36,283 nucleotides of DNA from a virus (lineage: Duplodnaviria; Heunggongvirae; Uroviricota; Caudoviricetes): IMG/VR virus record IMGVR_UViG_2671180456_000012, one strand, 5' to 3'. Positions 2,891 through 10,020 of this stretch are shown piece by piece (the stretch's first letter is position 1; every line of letters starts with the position of its first letter). Under the pieces are notes generated by a model. The model had not been told where the DNA came from and searched no databases. It saw nothing but the letters and a program-made list of their open reading frames with translations. Position numbers and translations under genes: made by a program.

Positions 2891-4450
2891 CTAATCTCGT
2901 TTCAGAACTCCAAAATCGAATGCTCCATCAATAGGCAATACACCTTCTGCAAAGCCAGGTGTGGTGTCGATGATGTGTTTTCGCTCATAAGAGTGAGACA
3001 ACAGGTATTTGTTGCTAATGTCAATGAAATCAGTGATAAAACACACGTTTGCCTGATTTTTTTTGGCTCGTAAGCCACGACCGACACGCTGTCTCATTTC
3101 AACTTCTGCTTTCCCACCACCAGCAAGAATGACCGCACCAACGCTTGGCACATCAACACCAACATCCAGAATAGTCGAGCCTATTAAAACATCTATTTCA
3201 CCAGACGCTAAACTATTCAGCTTTGCTTGCCTTGTCGTCTGGTTAGATTCCCCATAGATGAAATCAACTTTAAGACCTGACTCCTTCATCATCTCCATCA
3301 GGATTTGCCCGTGGCGTTTAAGACGAACCAGAGTCATACAATTGAGAGAATGTTGCTTATAGAGCAATGCTTCGCGCACAATGGCCTCGTTACGTCCCAA
3401 ATTATACACGATCCCCAACTGATAAGCCTTTTGGTAGGCAGTGCTCATACCTACTCTAAAATTGAGGTGTTTGTTGGCAAGTTCTGCCTTGATTCTGACC
3501 TCGTCCGGTTTGTAGGCAACTTTATGATAAAGGAAGTACGGCTTTGCCAGAATGCCTCGATCAATCAGGTACTTTTCTGTGACTTTAATTTCAATTCGCC
3601 CGGCCACCGCCATCAGGCGCATGTTGGCTTCCGTCGAATCCTTCATGAACGGCGTGGCCGTAAGCGCCAGACGATAGTCTGCGTTCACACATAATCTGGC
3701 AATGTCATAGAAATTAGAGCCTGAAGACTCATGCGCTTCTTCCAGAATAAGCAGAGACACACTTGAAAGGAAGCGTTTCACCAACTCCCGACGTTTGAGG
3801 TGGTAGCTCTTTTTATCTGGTGTTGCATCGCGTGGTGGTTCTTCGAGGAAACTTGCAAGAGTTTGAACTGTAGCGACGTTGATATGTCGTGATACCTGGA
3901 ACTCACCCGAGCCAATGACTCCAACCTTTTGGTCTTTTAACCACGGTTCGCCATTTTCGGCGCGGTAGTCGATGGATCTCTGGAAGTTTTCGGCCATTTG
4001 AAACATCAGAACAGAGCGGGTTGTTAAAAATAATGTCATTCGACCGATACGTGCAGCTGCTTTGCAGGCAACGTTAGATTTCCCGCCACCAGTAGCGATC
4101 TGCGCAATCATCATTCCCTCTCGAACCAGTGTTTCCACAGTCTGATCCTGATACGCATAATCAGGATTGTATGGGAATGGGTTAACCGCCGGATTTGGTT
4201 TACCAAGCGCCGGGGCTTTGTCTTTGCGGATATGAACACATTTGATGCCCGCCTTGTTCAAGTTCGCCGCTACAGGCTTGGCAAAGCCAGCAGGGAACGA
4301 GTTTTTACTCCAGTTGAACATCGTGCTTGTGCCCTTCCAGTCGCCAGTCTCGACTTCGTAGCTCAACATCTGTTGCACCATTTGCTTTACCTTGTCATCT
4401 GCGCCAGAAATAAGCGCATTAACTGCGTTAGATACAATCCGAACAGTCAT
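2891..4450 (-). CDS. SF2 DNA/RNA helicase (DEAH-type)
   Basis: 519 aa with Walker A (TGGGKSN), motif II (LILEEAHESS), motif III (TATP) and motif VI (QRVGRGLR); AAGGAAAGAGG SD upstream. Confidence 0.85.
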   Translation of the reverse strand: MTVRIVSNAVNALISGADDKVKQMVQQMLSYEVETGDWKGTSTMFNWSKNSFPAGFAKPVAANLNKAGIKCVHIRKDKAPALGKPNPAVNPFPYNPDYAYQDQTVETLVREGMMIAQIATGGGKSNVACKAAARIGRMTLFLTTRSVLMFQMAENFQRSIDYRAENGEPWLKDQKVGVIGSGEFQVSRHINVATVQTLASFLEEPPRDATPDKKSYHLKRRELVKRFLSSVSLLILEEAHESSGSNFYDIARLCVNADYRLALTATPFMKDSTEANMRLMAVAGRIEIKVTEKYLIDRGILAKPYFLYHKVAYKPDEVRIKAELANKHLNFRVGMSTAYQKAYQLGIVYNLGRNEAIVREALLYKQHSLNCMTLVRLKRHGQILMEMMKESGLKVDFIYGESNQTTRQAKLNSLASGEIDVLIGSTILDVGVDVPSVGAVILAGGGKAEVEMRQRVGRGLRAKKNQANVCFITDFIDISNKYLLSHSYERKHIIDTTPGFAEGVLPIDGAFDFGVLKRD

Positions 4451-4468
4451 AAACCTCTTTCCTTAGTG

Positions 4469-4514
4469 CCTTTTGTATGTTATTTGGCTATTATAATAAG
4501 TAAGTGATTACTTA
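4469..4514. promoter_or_regulatory. Divergent promoter region with overlapping -10 elements and a TAAGTA-N6-TACTTA palindrome
   Basis: ATTATAAT at 4490-4497 reads as TATAAT on both strands. The palindrome taagta(4497-4502)/tactta(4509-4514) is at the predicted rightward start site. Only 64 bp separate the helicase and ParB starts. Confidence 0.35.
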
Positions 4515-5213
4515 GTGGATTGTAGCAATAAAATGGATGTAAAAATCACGATTTTGCAGGTTGATGTTGCCAACCTTCGCCCGAATACCTGGAACACCAA
4601 TTCGGTTGGTGCGCAGAATTTTGAAAAACTGAAAGGTTCTATCGAAAAATTGGGCTTTTTTAAGCCAATTTTGGCTCGTGAACTTGAAGATGGATTTTTT
4701 GAAATCCTCGGCGGCGAACATCGCTGGCGTGCTGCTATTGAGCAAGGAATTTCAACGGTTCCGGTGCTTTCTGTGGGCAAAATTAGCGATGTCGTAGCTA
4801 AACAGATGTCACTGGTGGACAACGAGCGATACGGTGAAGACGACCAAATCGCATTGCAACGCTTCATTGAAGAAATTCAGTCAGAACTTGACTATCAACT
4901 GTCTGAAATCGCCCCGTATGACGACGAAATCTCGATGGTTTTAGCAAAAGAGGCGGCAATCGACCTTGAAGCACTGGAGGCGTTGTCTCGTGGTAGTGAT
5001 GAGCCTGTCGATACCGACAAACGAGAGAAAACCGAACGTGTGGGTGCGGAACATCAGACCATGCGCTTCAAAGTAACTTTCGATGCGTCAGATCGTGTTG
5101 CAGAAACCATAAAAAACATCATCAAAGAGCAGGCTATTAACACCGGTAATGAAATGGAGAACGCTGGTGAGGCTCTGGTGTGGCTGGTCGACTACTACAA
5201 GGAGCGTATGTAA
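4515..5213 (+). CDS. ParB-like nuclease-domain protein 1
   Basis: N-terminal ParB/Srx fold motif (FEILGGEHRWRAAIEQGISTVPV) and an acidic C-terminal half. The track start is GTG at 4515; the ATG at 4533 is an alternative. Confidence 0.8.
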   Translation: MDCSNKMDVKITILQVDVANLRPNTWNTNSVGAQNFEKLKGSIEKLGFFKPILARELEDGFFEILGGEHRWRAAIEQGISTVPVLSVGKISDVVAKQMSLVDNERYGEDDQIALQRFIEEIQSELDYQLSEIAPYDDEISMVLAKEAAIDLEALEALSRGSDEPVDTDKREKTERVGAEHQTMRFKVTFDASDRVAETIKNIIKEQAINTGNEMENAGEALVWLVDYYKERM

Positions 5214-5881
5214 TGACCAAAAAGTTTGAAATCGTATATCGCGACCCGGCAGATCTTATTCCCTATGAGATGAATGCCAAAAAGCATGATGAACAGCAGA
5301 TCCGAGATCTAGCCGCAGCCATTAAAAAGCGCGGATTTGACCAGCCAATTACGGTCGATAAGAACGACGTAATTATTACTGGCCACGGCCGCCGTGAGGC
5401 TGCAATTTTTGCTGGACTTGAGCGCGTACCGGTTATTGTTCGCGATGATCTCAGTGATGACGAGGTTCGTGCGAAGCGCCTTGAAGATAACCGACTTGCC
5501 AGCATTGATTACGATGCAATTAAGCTACAGAAAGAGCTTGAGTCGCTTGTTCTGGACGATATCGAGGTTTTCGGCTTTGAAGAGCGTGAGTTGAATGTTC
5601 TCGTTGGCAGTATGACAGAAGAAATGGACACCGACTCGCTAGTTATCGATCTTGGCGAAGAAACTAAACGACAGAAGGATGAACACACCGAGATCAGTCG
5701 TGAAGTTGCAGCGGAAGAAGTACGTGTTGTCGACGTATTGGGCTTTAAAACGCTCCCTGCTGGCTCTGCCATTGTTGTTGGTGATTTGCTTGCCCACATG
5801 GAAGAAATGACGGGAGAAAGCGGGGTAGACGCATTTGTGGCATATGCGGAGAAGATCTCTTCCGGGGAGATGGCTGCATGA
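5213..5881 (+). CDS. ParB-like nuclease-domain protein 2
   Basis: Motif IITGHGRREAAIFAGLERVPVIV. The ATG at 5213 overlaps the upstream stop (taATGa) with AAGGAG 8 nt upstream; the track ORF 5180..5881 is the same frame with an earlier start. Confidence 0.8.
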   Translation: MTKKFEIVYRDPADLIPYEMNAKKHDEQQIRDLAAAIKKRGFDQPITVDKNDVIITGHGRREAAIFAGLERVPVIVRDDLSDDEVRAKRLEDNRLASIDYDAIKLQKELESLVLDDIEVFGFEERELNVLVGSMTEEMDTDSLVIDLGEETKRQKDEHTEISREVAAEEVRVVDVLGFKTLPAGSAIVVGDLLAHMEEMTGESGVDAFVAYAEKISSGEMAA

Positions 5882-6516
5882 GCAAATACATCATCAACGT
5901 ATCGTTTCAGACACGCGTAAATAAAACCACGCGCACGTTGGAAATCGCTGAGTCGTTCGGGCTTGGTCTGGACGAAAAAGAGTGGACGCTTTACGACAAT
6001 CTGGAGCTGGAAGTGAAGCAGGGCGATGTGGTGTACATCACAGGCCAATCCGGATCCGGCAAATCCGTTGTGCTGCGCGAGTTGCAACGACAGATGAAGG
6101 ATGAAGGGCTGTCTGTAGCCTCCATCGATGATTTTACCTTCGATAATGAGGTTAACGTCATCGATCAGTTGGGCAAAACGACCAGTGATGCGCTTGGGTT
6201 GTTATCTATGGCTGGTCTGAACGATGCATATCTGTTTGTTCGCAAGCCTTCTGAAATGTCAGACGGCCAGAAATATCGTCTCAAGATTGCCAAACTGATT
6301 GAGTCAGGCGCTAAAGTGTGGGCTGCTGACGAGTTCGGGGCTGTTCTAGACCGTGTAACCGCTCAAGTTGTGGCATCTAACCTCCAGCGTGCCGCTCGAA
6401 AGGTTGGTGCGACGGTAATGGTGGCGACGACTCACGAAGACCTGAAGAACGCGCTGCGCCCGGATATGCAGATCACCAAGCACTACAAAGAACGCGTGAA
6501 GGTGGAATATGCCTGA
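5878..6516 (+). CDS. Stand-alone ABC-type ATPase (nucleotide-binding domain only)
   Basis: 212 aa with Walker A (GQSGSGKS), ABC signature-like MSDGQKYR, Walker B with D-loop (VWAADEFGAVLD) and H-loop (VATTHE), at canonical NBD spacing. Start overlaps the upstream stop (ATGA). Confidence 0.75.
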   Translation: MSKYIINVSFQTRVNKTTRTLEIAESFGLGLDEKEWTLYDNLELEVKQGDVVYITGQSGSGKSVVLRELQRQMKDEGLSVASIDDFTFDNEVNVIDQLGKTTSDALGLLSMAGLNDAYLFVRKPSEMSDGQKYRLKIAKLIESGAKVWAADEFGAVLDRVTAQVVASNLQRAARKVGATVMVATTHEDLKNALRPDMQITKHYKERVKVEYA

Positions 6517-6763
6517 TTTGAAGATCGTAGAGCTGAAGCCATCGAAAGAGGCTGACAACAACAACGTTGAAGTCATCCGCCTGCTGGAAGAAGCACTCCA
6601 GTACGCCAGAGAAGGCAAAAGCCAGAGCCTGGCACTGCTGATGATCAACAACGACGGCAGTGTGCTGGATTGCTGGCATAACGGTGGGCGTCCATACGTC
6701 ATGGTTGGGGCGATGGAATCGCTTCGCCTGGACTTCATCAATGCCAATATCGAGCGTAGGTGA
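6509..6763 (+). CDS. Hypothetical small protein (84 aa)
   Basis: Start overlaps the ATPase gene end and its stop overlaps the next gene start, i.e. translationally coupled within the operon. No motif recognised. Confidence 0.55.
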   Translation: MPDLKIVELKPSKEADNNNVEVIRLLEEALQYAREGKSQSLALLMINNDGSVLDCWHNGGRPYVMVGAMESLRLDFINANIERR

Positions 6764-6768
6764 TCGAC

Positions 6769-7659
6769 ATGACAGGCATCATCATCAAACGCTACCGCCC
6801 GGAAGAGTTCCCGCGTCATCTGGACTTTCTGGAGCGTATGACCGTTACCAAAGGCACGGTTGAAGACTGGCACGCGCTGAAGTCGCTGCACTACAAGACG
6901 GATGGTAAGCCGTTTGCGCCAACGTATTATCGCTGCGAACTGGACGACCGGCTGGTGGGCGTCGTGGTTATGGCTTACCCGAAACTGCTGCTGGCGCCTC
7001 GCCATCGCATGTTTCCTAAGCTGAAGCCAACCACCAATACCACCGTGGCCAACCAGTATTGGGGGCGGTACGTGAACAACAACTTTGCGGTGATCAGCCG
7101 TTCCGTTGTGGACACTCAGTACCGCGGTGTCGGCGTCTCCTATCGAATGATTAACCTGGTTAGCAGGATGCACGACCGGCCAATCATTGAGATCCAGTCC
7201 TCGATGAGCAAATACAATCCCTTCGCCATGAAAGCAGGGTTTAAGTTCATCCGCCCTGAGCGACCGAAGAGCTATGAAAGTGCACTGCGTGTATTCCAGC
7301 GCCATTTCCGTTCCGACCCGGGTGATAACGAGGCGATCGTCAAAGAGTTGTTCGCAATGAGCGAGTCTCGTCGTCGCCGTGCATTGCGTGATCTGGTGGC
7401 GGACTACCACAAGAACAGTTCCCTGGCAAAAGCTGGGCGGAATCGTGGCACGACGATTCAGGACATTGCCGACAGTCTGGTGGACGAGGCCAGCATTGTG
7501 AAGCTGCTCAAGGACATTCACAACCTGAGCTTTACGTCTCCGTTGTATGGTGTGTACCGAAACCCTGACTTTGGCCGTCGACTGCCTGACACGCTGCCAC
7601 TGCTGGCATTCGACAAACAACCTTTGGATAAACCGTTAGAAATTGCTTTACCGGCATAA
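6769..7659 (+). CDS. GNAT-fold acyltransferase-like protein with C-terminal extension
   Basis: Motif VISRSVVDTQYRGVGVSYRMINLV resembles GNAT motif A (Q/R-x-x-G-x-G/A). AGGTGA SD 5 nt before the ATG at 6769; the track starts at GTG 6760. Confidence 0.55.
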   Translation: MTGIIIKRYRPEEFPRHLDFLERMTVTKGTVEDWHALKSLHYKTDGKPFAPTYYRCELDDRLVGVVVMAYPKLLLAPRHRMFPKLKPTTNTTVANQYWGRYVNNNFAVISRSVVDTQYRGVGVSYRMINLVSRMHDRPIIEIQSSMSKYNPFAMKAGFKFIRPERPKSYESALRVFQRHFRSDPGDNEAIVKELFAMSESRRRRALRDLVADYHKNSSLAKAGRNRGTTIQDIADSLVDEASIVKLLKDIHNLSFTSPLYGVYRNPDFGRRLPDTLPLLAFDKQPLDKPLEIALPA

Positions 7660-7668
7660 GGATTTGCC

Positions 7669-7935
7669 ATGACGTTAACCGATAAACAAAAGGACATCAT
7701 CAAAACGCTCAATCTCGGTTATGAGCGAGGTCATCTACTTGATCTGGACGAATTGCTTGAAGTTTTGCCGTACAAGACAACCAAGCAAAGTATCCAGTTC
7801 TCAATTCGCGCTCTGATAAAAAAGGGGCTGGTGGAGAAAGGGCATACGCGCCAACGCAGTGACAATCGCTATCACCGCCGAACTCTTGGGTTAACCACTT
7901 TAGGTCGAGCCAAAGCGAAGTTACTGGTGATGTAA
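7669..7935 (+). CDS. Winged-helix DNA-binding protein, putative regulator
   Basis: 88 aa; helix-turn-helix-like core (TTKQSIQFSIRALIKKGLVEK) followed by a basic wing. Last gene before the palindromic region and terS. Confidence 0.5.
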   Translation: MTLTDKQKDIIKTLNLGYERGHLLDLDELLEVLPYKTTKQSIQFSIRALIKKGLVEKGHTRQRSDNRYHRRTLGLTTLGRAKAKLLVM

Positions 7936-7937
7936 TC

Positions 7938-8036
7938 GGTCTGGGAGCTTATTTAAAGACCTGCTTCTGTATATATAAATAATAAGTAACTTATTAAATA
8001 TATACGGAAGCAGGCTTAATAAGACATGCCCAGACC
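7938..8036. repeat. About 100-bp nested imperfect palindrome (candidate pac/ori/operator/bidirectional terminator)
   Basis: Outer arms ggtctggg (7938-7945) / cccagacc (8029-8036); inner arms ctgcttctgtatatata (7961-7977) / tatatacggaagcag (7999-8013) with one mismatch; centre aataagt-a-acttatt (7981-7995). Confidence 0.7.
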
Positions 8037-8131
8037 TAATTAAACACCCCAGAAAACAAGTTGGTTAGCAGATTCAGTAAACAAGTTGTTTTAGAGCGCA
8101 TGGACGCGCTCTGTGTGTTTTAGAGGGATCT

Positions 8132-8764
8132 ATGACGGTCGAAAAAGACGAGGTAAAAACTCGCCTGACACCAGCGGAGTGGGCCGAAGCTGAAGCCAAA
8201 TGGACGTCAGGCGAATATACACTCTCAAAGCTGGAGGAAGAGTACGGCATTCGTCGTGAAACACTCTCCAGACATTTCAAAAAGCGAGGATTAGAGAAAG
8301 GCGCGGACTCTGTTGGGAAGATGGTTCGTGAGTCTCTTAAATCTGACGCAGAGCTTCGCGCTAAAGCCCGTGCGGAAAAGATAGAAGAACGTCGTACACG
8401 TTATGACGGCTGGGCGTATGCGTTGGGGCAGATGGTGATGGTCGAAGTCACTACGGCCAAACGTGAGGGTAAGCCTTTAGGGGCGATTGAGGATTCTCTC
8501 AAGAGCTTACAGAGAGCCAGTAATACCCTTGCAAAATGCTTTGAAGTTTCGTCCAAAGCATTGGGCATGGATCATGCGGAAAATGACGAGGAAGAAATTC
8601 CGAACCTGGTATTTGGTGAGCTTACGCCTTCCCAGGTGGCGAAATTACGTCAGGAAGACGACGAGCCTGAAATCATCGATGACGAATTGCTTGAGACGTT
8701 GGAAGAAGAAGCTCTAAGCGAATTTGATGCGACAGATGATGGAAGTGAAGGGGAGGACGAATAA
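8132..8764 (+). CDS. Terminase small subunit (putative)
   Basis: 210 aa, N-terminal HTH-like segment and highly acidic C-terminus, GAGGG SD, immediately upstream of and overlapping the large terminase start. Confidence 0.65.
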   Translation: MTVEKDEVKTRLTPAEWAEAEAKWTSGEYTLSKLEEEYGIRRETLSRHFKKRGLEKGADSVGKMVRESLKSDAELRAKARAEKIEERRTRYDGWAYALGQMVMVEVTTAKREGKPLGAIEDSLKSLQRASNTLAKCFEVSSKALGMDHAENDEEEIPNLVFGELTPSQVAKLRQEDDEPEIIDDELLETLEEEALSEFDATDDGSEGEDE

Positions 8765-10020
8765 TGGCAATCCCGTCCTCGCTCAGTCTTGTGCAACTGC
8801 ATTCTGGACAGATGAAAGTCTTCCAGTCTCCGCATCGATTTAAAGTTGTTTGTGCTGGTCGACGCTGGGGAAAATCCCGGTTGTCGATCTCCACTATTAT
8901 TCGTGCGGCGGCAAAGGAAAAAAAGCAAAGAGTCTGGTATGTCGCTCCTACTTACCAGATGGCTCGCCAGATTTTGTGGGACGATCTACAGGAAGTTCTG
9001 CCTCGTAAGTGGGTTAGGAAAAAGAACGACACCACGATGACAATCGTGTTGAAGAACGGTTCGGAGATCGCCCTCAAAGGTGCTGATAAGCCTGACACTC
9101 TGCGCGGCGTAGCGTTGCATTTTGTAGTGCTTGATGAATTTCAGGATATGAAGGCTGACACCTGGTACAAGGTGTTACGACCTACTCTTTCATCGACACG
9201 CGGCGGTGCACTGATCATTGGTACGCCAAAAGGCTTCTCGGAATTTCACAAACTGTGGACTATAGGCCAGAACGTAGAGCTGCAAAGAAAGGGACAGTGG
9301 AAGAGCTGGCAGTTTGTAACTGCCGATTCTCCGTTTGTACCTACGGCGGAAATTGAAGCTGCTAAGAACGATATGGACCCGAAATCGTTCGCTCAGGAGT
9401 ACCTGGCGAGCTTTGAGAACATGTCCGGGCGCGTTTACTACCCGTTCGATCGTAACGTGCATGTAAAACCGCTTCAGTTCAACCCTCGGTTGCCTATATG
9501 GGTAGGGCAGGACTTCAACATTGACCCGATGTCTTCAGTAATTTTGCAACCTCAGCCAAATGGTGAGCTATGGGCAATTGATGAATTGGTGCTCTTTTCC
9601 TCTAACACGGCAGAGGTTTGTGATGAGCTTGAGAGACGCTTCTGGCGCTGGAAATCACAGATAACGGTATTTCCAGATCCGGCAGGTGCTTATCGCCAAC
9701 ATGCTCGCGGGGAGTCTGACGTCGACATATTCAAAGAGAAGGGATTCTTACGTGTCGATTATTCGAAAAAGCACCCGCCAATTGCGGATCGTGTTAATGC
9801 TGTTAACCGAATGCTGATGACCGCATCTGGAGATATCCGGCTGTATATCGATCCGAAGTGCAAGCATTTGATTGATTCACTGGAAAAAGTCATCTACAAG
9901 CCTGGAACACGAGATATGGATAAGACAGGTGGCATTGAGCATAGTGCAGACGCATTGGGCTATCCAGTACATCGTAGGTATCCAGTCAAAAACCGTGTTA
10001 TTCTTGGTGGTTCTCGATAG
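8764..10020 (+). CDS. Terminase large subunit
   Basis: 418 aa; Walker A-like VVCAGRRWGKSRL near the N-terminus, Walker B-like hydrophobic stretch ending in DE (LHFVVLDEF), and a C-terminal nuclease-like region. Position between terS and portal. Confidence 0.85.
   Translation: MAIPSSLSLVQLHSGQMKVFQSPHRFKVVCAGRRWGKSRLSISTIIRAAAKEKKQRVWYVAPTYQMARQILWDDLQEVLPRKWVRKKNDTTMTIVLKNGSEIALKGADKPDTLRGVALHFVVLDEFQDMKADTWYKVLRPTLSSTRGGALIIGTPKGFSEFHKLWTIGQNVELQRKGQWKSWQFVTADSPFVPTAEIEAAKNDMDPKSFAQEYLASFENMSGRVYYPFDRNVHVKPLQFNPRLPIWVGQDFNIDPMSSVILQPQPNGELWAIDELVLFSSNTAEVCDELERRFWRWKSQITVFPDPAGAYRQHARGESDVDIFKEKGFLRVDYSKKHPPIADRVNAVNRMLMTASGDIRLYIDPKCKHLIDSLEKVIYKPGTRDMDKTGGIEHSADALGYPVHRRYPVKNRVILGGSR

Follow-up and report, generated by a model that had tools for sequence, protein, structure and literature searches.

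The DNA considered here, referred to throughout as the window, is a 36,283-nucleotide stretch of a tailed virus (Caudoviricetes; IMG/VR record IMGVR_UViG_2671180456_000012), and our subject is a cluster of six genes at 4515-7935 in which an earlier reading of the sequence alone (the original prediction) had seen a candidate DNA-modification or anti-defence module. The cluster itself is borne out: all six open reading frames (ORFs) are present on the + strand at these coordinates, and they are tightly packed, neighbours either overlapping by 1 to 8 nucleotides (nt) or lying 9 nt apart, so that tight translational coupling across the six is plausible. In order, they encode two ParB-fold proteins (ParB1 and ParB2), an ABC ATPase, a protein of 84 amino acids (aa), a GNAT-fold protein, and a small basic protein of 88 aa, and each has a strong match among the PHROG families (723, 930, 293, 796, 886, and 900). 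Region 4400-8100 is 97 to 98% identical to Escherichia phages CMS-2020a, PhiR41_1, and Cyrano, 87% identical to Salmonella phage SSU5, and 81 to 82% identical to Klebsiella phage-plasmids, which identifies the window as an SSU5-type phage-plasmid of E. coli.

The ABC ATPase (5878-6516, + strand) is a soluble protein of 212 aa (Pfam ABC_tran, E = 5e-13) whose PDB matches are transporter-type ATP-binding domains. It had been credited with a full set of motifs, and all of the catalytic ones can be read in its translation: Walker A (GQSGSGKS), signature (SDGQ), Walker B (ADEF), and H-loop (TTHE). The GNAT-fold protein (6760-7659, + strand; the SSU5 start is annotated at ATG 6769) is a predicted acyltransferase. 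Its fold spans residues ~25 to 165, with a conserved acyl-coenzyme A (acyl-CoA) pyrophosphate-binding loop, QYRGVG, and invariant R122 and G125, and the extension of ~130 aa that had been described for it is C-terminal and helical; the protein is basic (isoelectric point [pI] of 9.8). Mom is among the top matches when its structural neighbours are listed. This likeness is one of fold alone, the Mom family being absent from the Pfam, PHROG, and NCBIfam matches of the protein, and its profile matched no PDB sequence at E ≤ 1. NCBIfam held nothing specific for the GNAT, 84-aa, or 88-aa proteins, and no HNH family was matched by any of the six proteins in Pfam or PHROG. Against the PADLOC defence models, the only matches were at the level of the P-loop (mad3, PtuA, and BrxD) or to the ParB part of MTase_II, with no full-length system among them.

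Searched against 1.84 billion representative proteins, the GNAT profile retrieved 944 relatives, and most of the distant ones are 450 to 500 aa long and match in their C-terminal half; in 10 of 10 distant relatives sampled, an ABC domain lies N-terminal to the GNAT match. The consensus of this fused family has both the ABC and the GNAT motifs of the window, and the ABC family motifs GxSGSGKS, SDGQKYR, DEF..LDR.TA.VVA, and ATTH.DL agree with the consensus of 43 fused proteins. Such fusions number in the hundreds among the proteins of phages and archaeal viruses (COG2401, labelled by JGI as “ABC-type ATPase with predicted acetyltransferase domain”), and where a sequence carries a name, its source is a metagenome-assembled genome from the archaeal phylum Nitrososphaerota, Bathyarchaeia, or Thermoproteota. 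Isolated phages contribute 82 records with the ABC-GNAT unit. Jace gp86, from a Rhodococcus phage, is ~31% identical to the ABC protein of the window, and gp038 of Tenacibaculum phage pT24 can be placed in the fused family because it matches the family profile with an hhalign probability of 99.8 (E = 2e-29). Split and fused forms alternate among phages; in the Firmicutes phages 315.4, P335, and Vinitor-27 (loci L181, L185, and L192), ABC and GNAT are consistently two ORFs (recovered by tblastn as two pieces), which in the latter two overlap by 4 nt. In one variant, a 1260-aa protein (P0192; L007/L008, 7001-10783; 35 blocks of the contig collection), the unit is fused to a family-B DNA polymerase and lies inside a phage replication module. 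From these sequence comparisons we conclude that ABC and GNAT are a single functional unit, and an ancient one. Other fused forms (proteins P0164 and P0154) include an ABC domain interrupted by an intein with LAGLIDADG and an archaeal form with a C-terminal TFIIB repeat. A frequent break in viral contigs just past ABC-GNAT was considered as a sign of genome termini but carries little weight, since many of these contigs break off precisely at the stop codon, for which provirus trimming along gene boundaries is the likelier cause.

Elsewhere, the unit keeps company with DNA-handling genes and with genes for group transfer or donor synthesis. The 80 viral contigs recovered with the fused family run from capsid and tail genes through two small genes to a gene for a TerS-like helix-turn-helix (HTH) protein, then TerL and ABC-GNAT, and in 58 IMG/VR viral-contig loci TerL immediately adjoins ABC-GNAT, often with an overlap of a few bases. 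Unrelated phages, with hosts among Proteobacteria, Firmicutes, Actinobacteria, and Spirochaetes, share a ParB_N gene placed immediately before ABC-GNAT or overlapping it; ParB is directly upstream, and TerS/TerL usually downstream, in Streptococcus phage 315.4, Leptospira phage LE4, Pseudoalteromonas phage SL25, Gordonia phage AnClar, Rhodococcus phage Jace, and Arthrobacter phage EastWest. This upstream gene is often mislabelled as a “DNA modification methylase” or “adenine-specific methyltransferase,” and from size, position, and the usual mislabelling we infer that the upstream genes of Lactococcus phage P335 and Oenococcus phage Vinitor-27 are ParB genes as well. In SL25 (L178, 4441-6415), a ParB of 184 aa, a fused ABC-GNAT of 356 aa, and a TerS-like protein of 124 aa are encoded by overlapping, unannotated ORFs just before the annotated large terminase gene, and in AnClar the row runs ParB, HNH, ABC-GNAT, terminase. 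The unit lies beside DNA polymerase, primase, or helicase genes in Thomasclavelia phage TR-TP1, Enterococcus phage 9184, and Nonlabens phage P12024S, and in the Mu-like phages Burkholderia phiE255 and Pseudomonas Komp_PAO1_1 it comes after the tail-fibre genes, towards the right end. Directly 3′ of the unit in these last two phages, as in Porphyromonas phage007a and AnClar, there is a Formyl_trans_N gene, and in 315.4 the unit is followed by a gene for an ASCH domain protein. In Jace (L177, 4447-7212), ParB (gp85), ABC-GNAT (gp86), an aspartate decarboxylase (PanD; gp87, Pfam 2e-33), and a fragment of a CoA-transferase III (gp88) stand in a row. The sequences of gp87 and gp88 suggest that they provide a purpose-made beta-alanyl-CoA donor for the GNAT, and we read such donor-synthesis genes as a sign that the GNAT is catalytic.

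Upstream of the ABC gene lie ParB1 (4533-5213, + strand; ATG 4533, as in PhiR41_1 and Cyrano, is the likelier start, a longer ORF from GTG 4515 being possible) and ParB2 (5213-5881, + strand; annotated start ATG 5213, with a longer ORF possible from GTG 5180). Their description as tandem paralogues holds up well. Both exceed the Pfam ParB_N gathering score of 26.3 (ParB1, 49.9 bits, E = 3e-13; ParB2, 35.0 bits, E = 1.5e-8), and they are paralogues by virtue of N-terminal domains that are 33% identical over 116 aa (E = 5e-10). In ParB1, the N-terminal domain has the ParB-CTPase fold and the motif GGEHRWRAA, a near match to the canonical GERRxRA, and an acidic linker joins it to a small C-terminal domain; the protein matches PHROG 723 (2e-79) and aligns to the N-terminal domains of Spo0J/ParB/Noc proteins in the PDB. 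ParB2 shares this layout of acidic linker and small C-terminal domain, and its motif, TGHGRREAA, is of the GHGR type found in ParB-methyltransferase fusions; it matches PHROG 930 (1e-112), and over its ParB part PHROG 498, “DNA methyltransferase” (5e-32), and the N-terminal region of PADLOC MTase_II (2.7e-17). Both linkers are very acidic (protein pI values, 4.55 for ParB1 and 4.53 for ParB2). Across 25 sequences of ParB1, ParB2, and single ParBs, the nucleotide-binding residues G57 of box II and D92-N93 of box III are invariant and R60, also of box II, is present in at least 90%; ParB1 retains GE.R, and the GHGR of ParB2 means that the catalytic Glu is replaced there.

It is ParB2, directly upstream of the ABC gene, that is the conserved partner. 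The single ParBs that stand beside ABC-GNAT carry its motifs, and those of SL25, 315.4, Jace, and EastWest are somewhat nearer to it in sequence (26 to 34% identity) than ParB1 orthologues are (19 to 25%), LE4 (18%) being an exception. ParB1 is the fastest-evolving core gene, its orthologues dropping to 36 to 47% identity where TerL retains 62 to 82%; the ParB1 cluster by itself already spans hundreds of contigs. An HTH was detected in neither ParB by Pfam scan, and with TIGR00180 both score 43 bits against a cut-off of 58.45, the N-terminal part alone matching. Ribbon-helix-helix C-terminal domains, for which a beta-alpha-alpha pattern had made the ParBs candidates, found no support, hhalign giving less than 5% probability against Arc, CopG, ParG, Mnt, and MetJ. 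An AlphaFold2 model of ParB1 reached a predicted local distance difference test (pLDDT) score of 38, which we attribute to a shallow alignment that held only ~87%-identical homologues.

The idea of a fixed six-gene module did not survive comparison. The 84-aa ORF (6509-6763, + strand; PHROG 796, function unknown; no Pfam match) is missing from PhiR41_1, Cyrano, and many other nearly identical contigs (97 to 100% identity) and is therefore accessory, outside the core; its presence or absence was scored in a viral-contig scan with the GNAT alignment, which returned close relatives alone. The slot between ABC and GNAT is variable, being occupied by the 84-aa gene, by nothing, or by a 184-aa HExxH protein with a metalloprotease motif (L059, 7447-8004; L072, 7444-7995), and in Rhizobium phage RHEph10 by a DUF2829 protein; in the marine locus L003, a Sequestin-family gene (PF21825) follows GNAT. 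On the minus strand of the window, a 424-aa ORF (6346-7620) lies opposite GNAT, the 84-aa gene, and the last part of ABC and is probably a shadow ORF of a GC-richer stretch. The 88-aa protein (7669-7935, + strand; pI 10.2; PHROG 900, 2e-45) is the last gene before a cos-like site. It had been called a winged-helix protein; small and basic it is, and the winged-helix signals are weak (Sta1/Lrs14, E ~ 3e-3; LexA_DNA_bind, E = 0.07; the C-terminal stretch of two PADLOC CARF3 models, E = 4.5e-5, a stretch that we take to be a winged helix), so that by sequence a winged-helix DNA binder is possible. It is moderately conserved, at 29 to 38% in distant relatives.

With the 84-aa gene excepted, the gene order described in the original prediction is kept across related phages. 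A minus-strand helicase, then ParB1, ParB2, ABC, GNAT, and the small protein, then TerS-like, TerL, and portal, is the arrangement in a marine contig (~45% identity), an Ectothiorhodospira contig, Pseudomonas phage nickie, Rhizobium phage RHEph10, and Stenotrophomonas phage BUCTxx99, and the core order before TerS/TerL is common to siphoviruses of ~105 to 120 kb from Gamma- and Alphaproteobacteria, with small inserted genes that vary by lineage. ABC and GNAT roughly keep pace with TerL in conservation: where the enterobacterial loci diverge most, identities are 80 to 82% for ABC, 75 to 80% for GNAT, 81 to 82% for TerL, and 44 to 47% for ParB1, and ABC is still 59 to 63% identical in the marine and Ectothiorhodospira relatives, matching TerL's level. 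Beyond the SSU5 supergroup, only a ParB2-like protein and ABC-GNAT recur. In one locus (L086, 2201-3248; P0027), the N-terminal part of ParB1 is fused to the C-terminal two-thirds of GNAT, with ParB2 and ABC deleted, and the module appears degraded.

The cluster had been placed between an early promoter and the packaging genes, and the second half of this placement stands. Downstream, on the + strand, are genes for a TerS-like DNA-binding protein (8132-8764; PHROG 867, 2e-100) and the large terminase, TerL (8764-10020), with portal, head, and then tail genes beyond in the ORF map; orthologues of these genes carry terminase and portal annotation in nickie, RHEph10, and BUCTxx99. To the left, a DEAD/ResIII helicase gene (2891-4450, minus strand) belongs to a leftward-running gene group, and the divergent intergenic or leader region between it and ParB1 (4451-4532, + strand) yielded no sigma-70 consensus promoter in a promoter scan. 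It contains instead the element TATAATAAGTAAGTG (4492-4506), which is kept in SSU5, PhiR41_1, L072, and L079 despite divergent flanks and which its conservation makes a candidate promoter −10 region or operator. The 11-mer ATAATAAGTAA of this element recurs exactly at 7979-7989, at the centre of an imperfect palindrome, and the recurrence may reflect a shared promoter class or a shared operator. The palindrome itself, of ~95 bp (GGTCTGGG..CCTGCTTCTGTATATAT..ATATATACGGAAGCAGG..CCCAGACC; 7938-8036, centre near 7987), lies in the 196 bp that separate the operon from the TerS-like gene. Both ends of the linear SSU5 record fall inside the palindrome, at 7996/7997, and the match to Cyrano stops at that record's end, at ~7997; from this mapping, the palindrome is probably the cos site. 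Because it looks like cos, the operon would close the right end of the virion DNA as its last transcription unit. Beyond the palindrome are two repeats containing AACAAGTTG (8053-8067 and 8078-8092) and a GC-rich hairpin with a T-run (8092-8113) that ends 19 nt before the TerS-like start codon; binding of TerS is one possible role for these elements (8053-8113), and attenuation or termination before the structural operon is another. Far to the right, positions 31000-34000 differ from the remaining window in composition (GC, 0.57 to 0.61; AT skew, 0.24 to 0.37); they lie inside ORF 31540-34905, a putative tail-fibre-type gene, and may be a mosaic or recently acquired segment.

Based on these findings, we favour the view, to which we would assign a probability of about 0.45, that the ParB1-ParB2-ABC-GNAT core is a lytic-cycle DNA-modification machine that acylates phage DNA before packaging. 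The domain identities, the intact catalytic motifs, the fusion or adjacency of ABC and GNAT, and the kept neighbourhoods are its observed ground; the substrate, the acyl group, the role of the ParBs, the timing, and the protective function would be as follows. ABC ATPase and GNAT, which most other viruses encode as a fusion, would act as one enzyme, in which ATP-driven dimerization of the ABC part engages DNA and offers the GNAT site a base, most plausibly an A, C, or G at its exocyclic amine; the acyl group would there pass to it from acyl-CoA. Since the cluster has no donor-synthesis gene, the donor in SSU5-type phages would probably be a host acyl-CoA, e.g., acetyl-CoA. The two ParBs, in which no HTH is recognizable, would, gated by a nucleoside triphosphate (NTP), load or activate the enzyme and keep it on DNA, in the manner of the ParB-dependent thymine dioxygenases. 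Given that the genes lie at the right virion end, directly upstream of cos and terminase, the mark would be a late one, written on replicated concatemers just before packaging, and it would protect the incoming DNA from host nucleases. Expression in the lytic cycle is weakly supported by Cyrano, whose five module genes (119 to 123) are not on the list of genes expressed in lysogeny.

Of the functions considered, an ATP-driven, acyl-CoA-dependent modification of DNA fits best because the unit has both DNA-handling and group-transfer or donor-synthesis partners, its motifs are intact, and its GNAT is basic. It also has precedents. Phage ParBs that lack a DNA-binding domain are required activators of thymine dioxygenases that act on DNA (2026 PNAS; PMC13229309), the idea that ParB directs DNA-modification machinery being credited there to Iyer et al. 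2013. According to a 2025 survey (10.1101/2025.10.10.680097), the ParB folds of phages are often joined to DNA methyltransferases, those of bacteria to an acetyltransferase. A more tentative and far-reaching version, which we put forward as less likely than not, is that ABC-GNAT, powered by ATP and loaded by ParB-fold NTP switches, writes an N-acyl mark (acetyl or aminoacyl) before cos packaging in SSU5-type phages, many other phages, and archaeal viruses, and that the variants with PanD and CoA-transferase or with formyltransferase build beta-alanyl or N-formyl-aminoacyl adducts.

Several points weigh against acylation of DNA. A modified base has not been reported for SSU5-type phages in the literature that we searched, and these phages and plasmids sequence normally. 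The SSU5 cluster holds neither a donor-synthesis gene nor a reader gene. The archaeal-type loci have no ParB, which indicates that ParB is not obligatory, and nuclease and NTPase activities also occur among ParB proteins. The evidence is contextual throughout, and a DNA-bound protein or RNA could be the substrate instead. Finally, the tightest and most frequent link of the unit is with terminase, which a role in packaging would fit equally well.

That role is the main rival, kept alive by the adjacency of module and terminase: the ParBs and ABC-GNAT would act at cos with TerS/TerL, bending, nicking, clamping, or marking DNA or acetylating a component of the terminase or portal, a part similar to that of the HNH protein which HK97-like cos phages encode at the genome end. 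We consider it unlikely, and the evidence on it is mixed. Among the 58 viral-contig loci with ABC-GNAT next to TerL, the unit is upstream in 49, often with the few-base overlap noted above, and it stands just before TerS/TerL in SSU5-like phages, SL25, 315.4, P335, LE4, and AnClar, the last with its consecutive ParB, HNH, ABC-GNAT, and terminase genes; the operon of the window ends at the cos-like palindrome to which the SSU5 record ends map, and one Nickievirus TerL groups with 3′-cos terminases (PMC8537276). However, a position in the late operon could by itself account for the proximity to terminase, and elsewhere the unit is found far from any terminase, in replication modules or fused to DNA polymerase; in Mu-like phages it comes after the tail-fibre genes. 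Its formyltransferase, PanD, CoA-transferase, and ASCH partners have no obvious packaging role. Moreover, we know of no packaging machine with a GNAT or an ABC ATPase, which counts against this explanation.

Improbable, in our estimate, is that the enzyme acetylates a protein for host takeover or regulation, e.g., RNA polymerase or a nucleoid or defence protein, with ParB and the small basic protein as DNA-bound regulators. Phage GNATs that acetylate the alpha subunit of RNA polymerase are known (Rac of phiKMV-like phages; cited in PMC7824862), and the accessory genes in variable slots, such as the DUF2829 gene of RHEph10 and the Sequestin-family gene of L003, hint at a host-interaction region. 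Such a function leaves unexplained the obligate ABC partner, the DNA polymerase fusion, the ParB partnership across phyla, and the formyltransferase and PanD/CoA-transferase partners, and a protein target specific to the host sits poorly with conservation at the level of TerL in hosts as far apart as archaea and Firmicutes.

We find it very improbable that the substrate is RNA, i.e., that ABC-GNAT would acylate a tRNA or rRNA base by analogy with TmcA/NAT10. The coupling of an ATPase to a GNAT is indeed the architecture of TmcA/NAT10, an E. coli ASCH protein hydrolyses N4-acetylcytidine, and both facts count for this explanation, as do the ASCH-domain gene that follows the unit in 315.4 and the tRNA genes of nickie close to its copy of the cluster. 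Nonetheless, the recurrent neighbours (ParB, terminase, DNA polymerase, primase, and helicase) all handle DNA, and Pfam scans detected no tRNA-binding domain. A partition cassette, with the ParBs as centromere binders and the ABC ATPase in the place of ParA, was raised in the original prediction and recommends itself by the phage-plasmid nature of the element and the database name “ParB-like partition protein,” but it is scarcely credible and we reject it: the ATPase is of the transporter ABC type rather than ParA/MinD (the CbiA/ParA model scores 19 bits, below its cut-off), the ParBs have no HTH, fall below the TIGR00180 cut-off, and are strongly acidic in their central and C-terminal regions, the module occurs in a Nickievirus relative without observed temperate behaviour (PMC8537276) and in integrated prophages, Mu-like phages, and archaeal-type viral contigs, and Cyrano lists as expressed in lysogeny a separate “septum site-determining protein,” MinD/ParA-type by name, and not genes 119 to 123.

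The nucleotide-dependent, DNA-modifying machine proposed in the original prediction is the reading that comparative genomics supports best. Its description as undescribed was wrong, since a published prediction covers the same family, to which pT24, the example phage named there, belongs: Iyer et al. 2021 (PMC7824862), who credit Iyer et al. 2013, predicted that a GNAT coupled with an ABC ATPase makes an uncharacterised acyl modification of a DNA base. In the literature searched, we found no experimental work on an ABC-GNAT system or on an acylated DNA base from one, and nothing relevant on COG2401 or MK0520; papers on SSU5, Cyrano, a Klebsiella p2 plasmid, and a Nickievirus phage gave no functional data on the module genes. 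“ABC transporter,” “partition protein,” and “DNA methylase” are the labels that annotators routinely and wrongly give these genes, which are unannotated in at least one record (SL25). If the favoured reading is correct, there exists a widespread, chemically unknown DNA modification that can be tested in phage-plasmids that are easy to handle, inducible, and engineerable. It would be the second GNAT-type DNA modification after that of Mom and the first to be driven by ATP, it would make a second enzyme class controlled by ParB-fold proteins, and it would show what COG2401 proteins do in archaeal viruses. Clinical E. coli, Klebsiella, and Salmonella commonly carry SSU5-like phage-plasmids, and the modification would also bear on restriction evasion by elements that carry resistance genes between hosts.

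Among known systems, the ParB-dependent thymine dioxygenases (5mYOX with its cognate ParB; PMC13229309) share with the window a ParB that pairs an N-terminal nucleotide-binding domain with a C-terminal domain, has no obvious DNA-binding domain, and is encoded beside a base-modifying enzyme. They differ in that the partner is an iron- and 2-oxoglutarate-dependent (Fe/2OG) dioxygenase served by one ParB, whose requirement was demonstrated there and is predicted here. ParB-DNA methyltransferase fusions (PHROG 498 and PADLOC MTase_II) have a ParB part like ParB2 (5e-32 and 2.7e-17), whereas the window has no methyltransferase domain and a separate ABC-GNAT as the predicted catalytic partner. To our knowledge, Mom is the only DNA-acylating GNAT. 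Its gene lies after the tail-fibre genes near the right end of Mu, as the ABC-GNAT genes do in phiE255 and Komp_PAO1_1; unlike the module of the window, it is regulated by Com and Dam. Mom of phage Mu acylates adenine N6 on DNA (PDB 8bv8, “methylcarbamoylase Mom”) and resembles the GNAT of the window at the level of the fold. Unlike the latter, it has neither an ATPase partner nor a ParB, and the two share no sequence family. TmcA/NAT10 likewise joins an NTPase module to a GNAT that acetylates a nucleic-acid base; there, the ATPase is of the helicase type and the substrate is RNA, and no homology to the proteins of the window was detected beyond the GNAT fold. HK97-like HNH packaging accessories, such as gp74 of HK97 at the genome end, occupy the same place as the genes of the window, last before cos and upstream of TerS/TerL on the concatemer, but the cluster has no HNH domain and the folds are wholly different. 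The closest counterpart is the predicted ABC-GNAT system (COG2401 type), which is of the same family, shares its motifs, and has the same order of ABC before GNAT. In the window, by comparison, two genes separated by a variable slot encode the unit, the helical extension of ~130 aa is attached to the GNAT half, and the unit stands after two ParB paralogues and before a small basic protein and the cos site. As far as its sequence allows us to classify it, the module of the window is a two-ParB, split-gene member of this computationally predicted kind.

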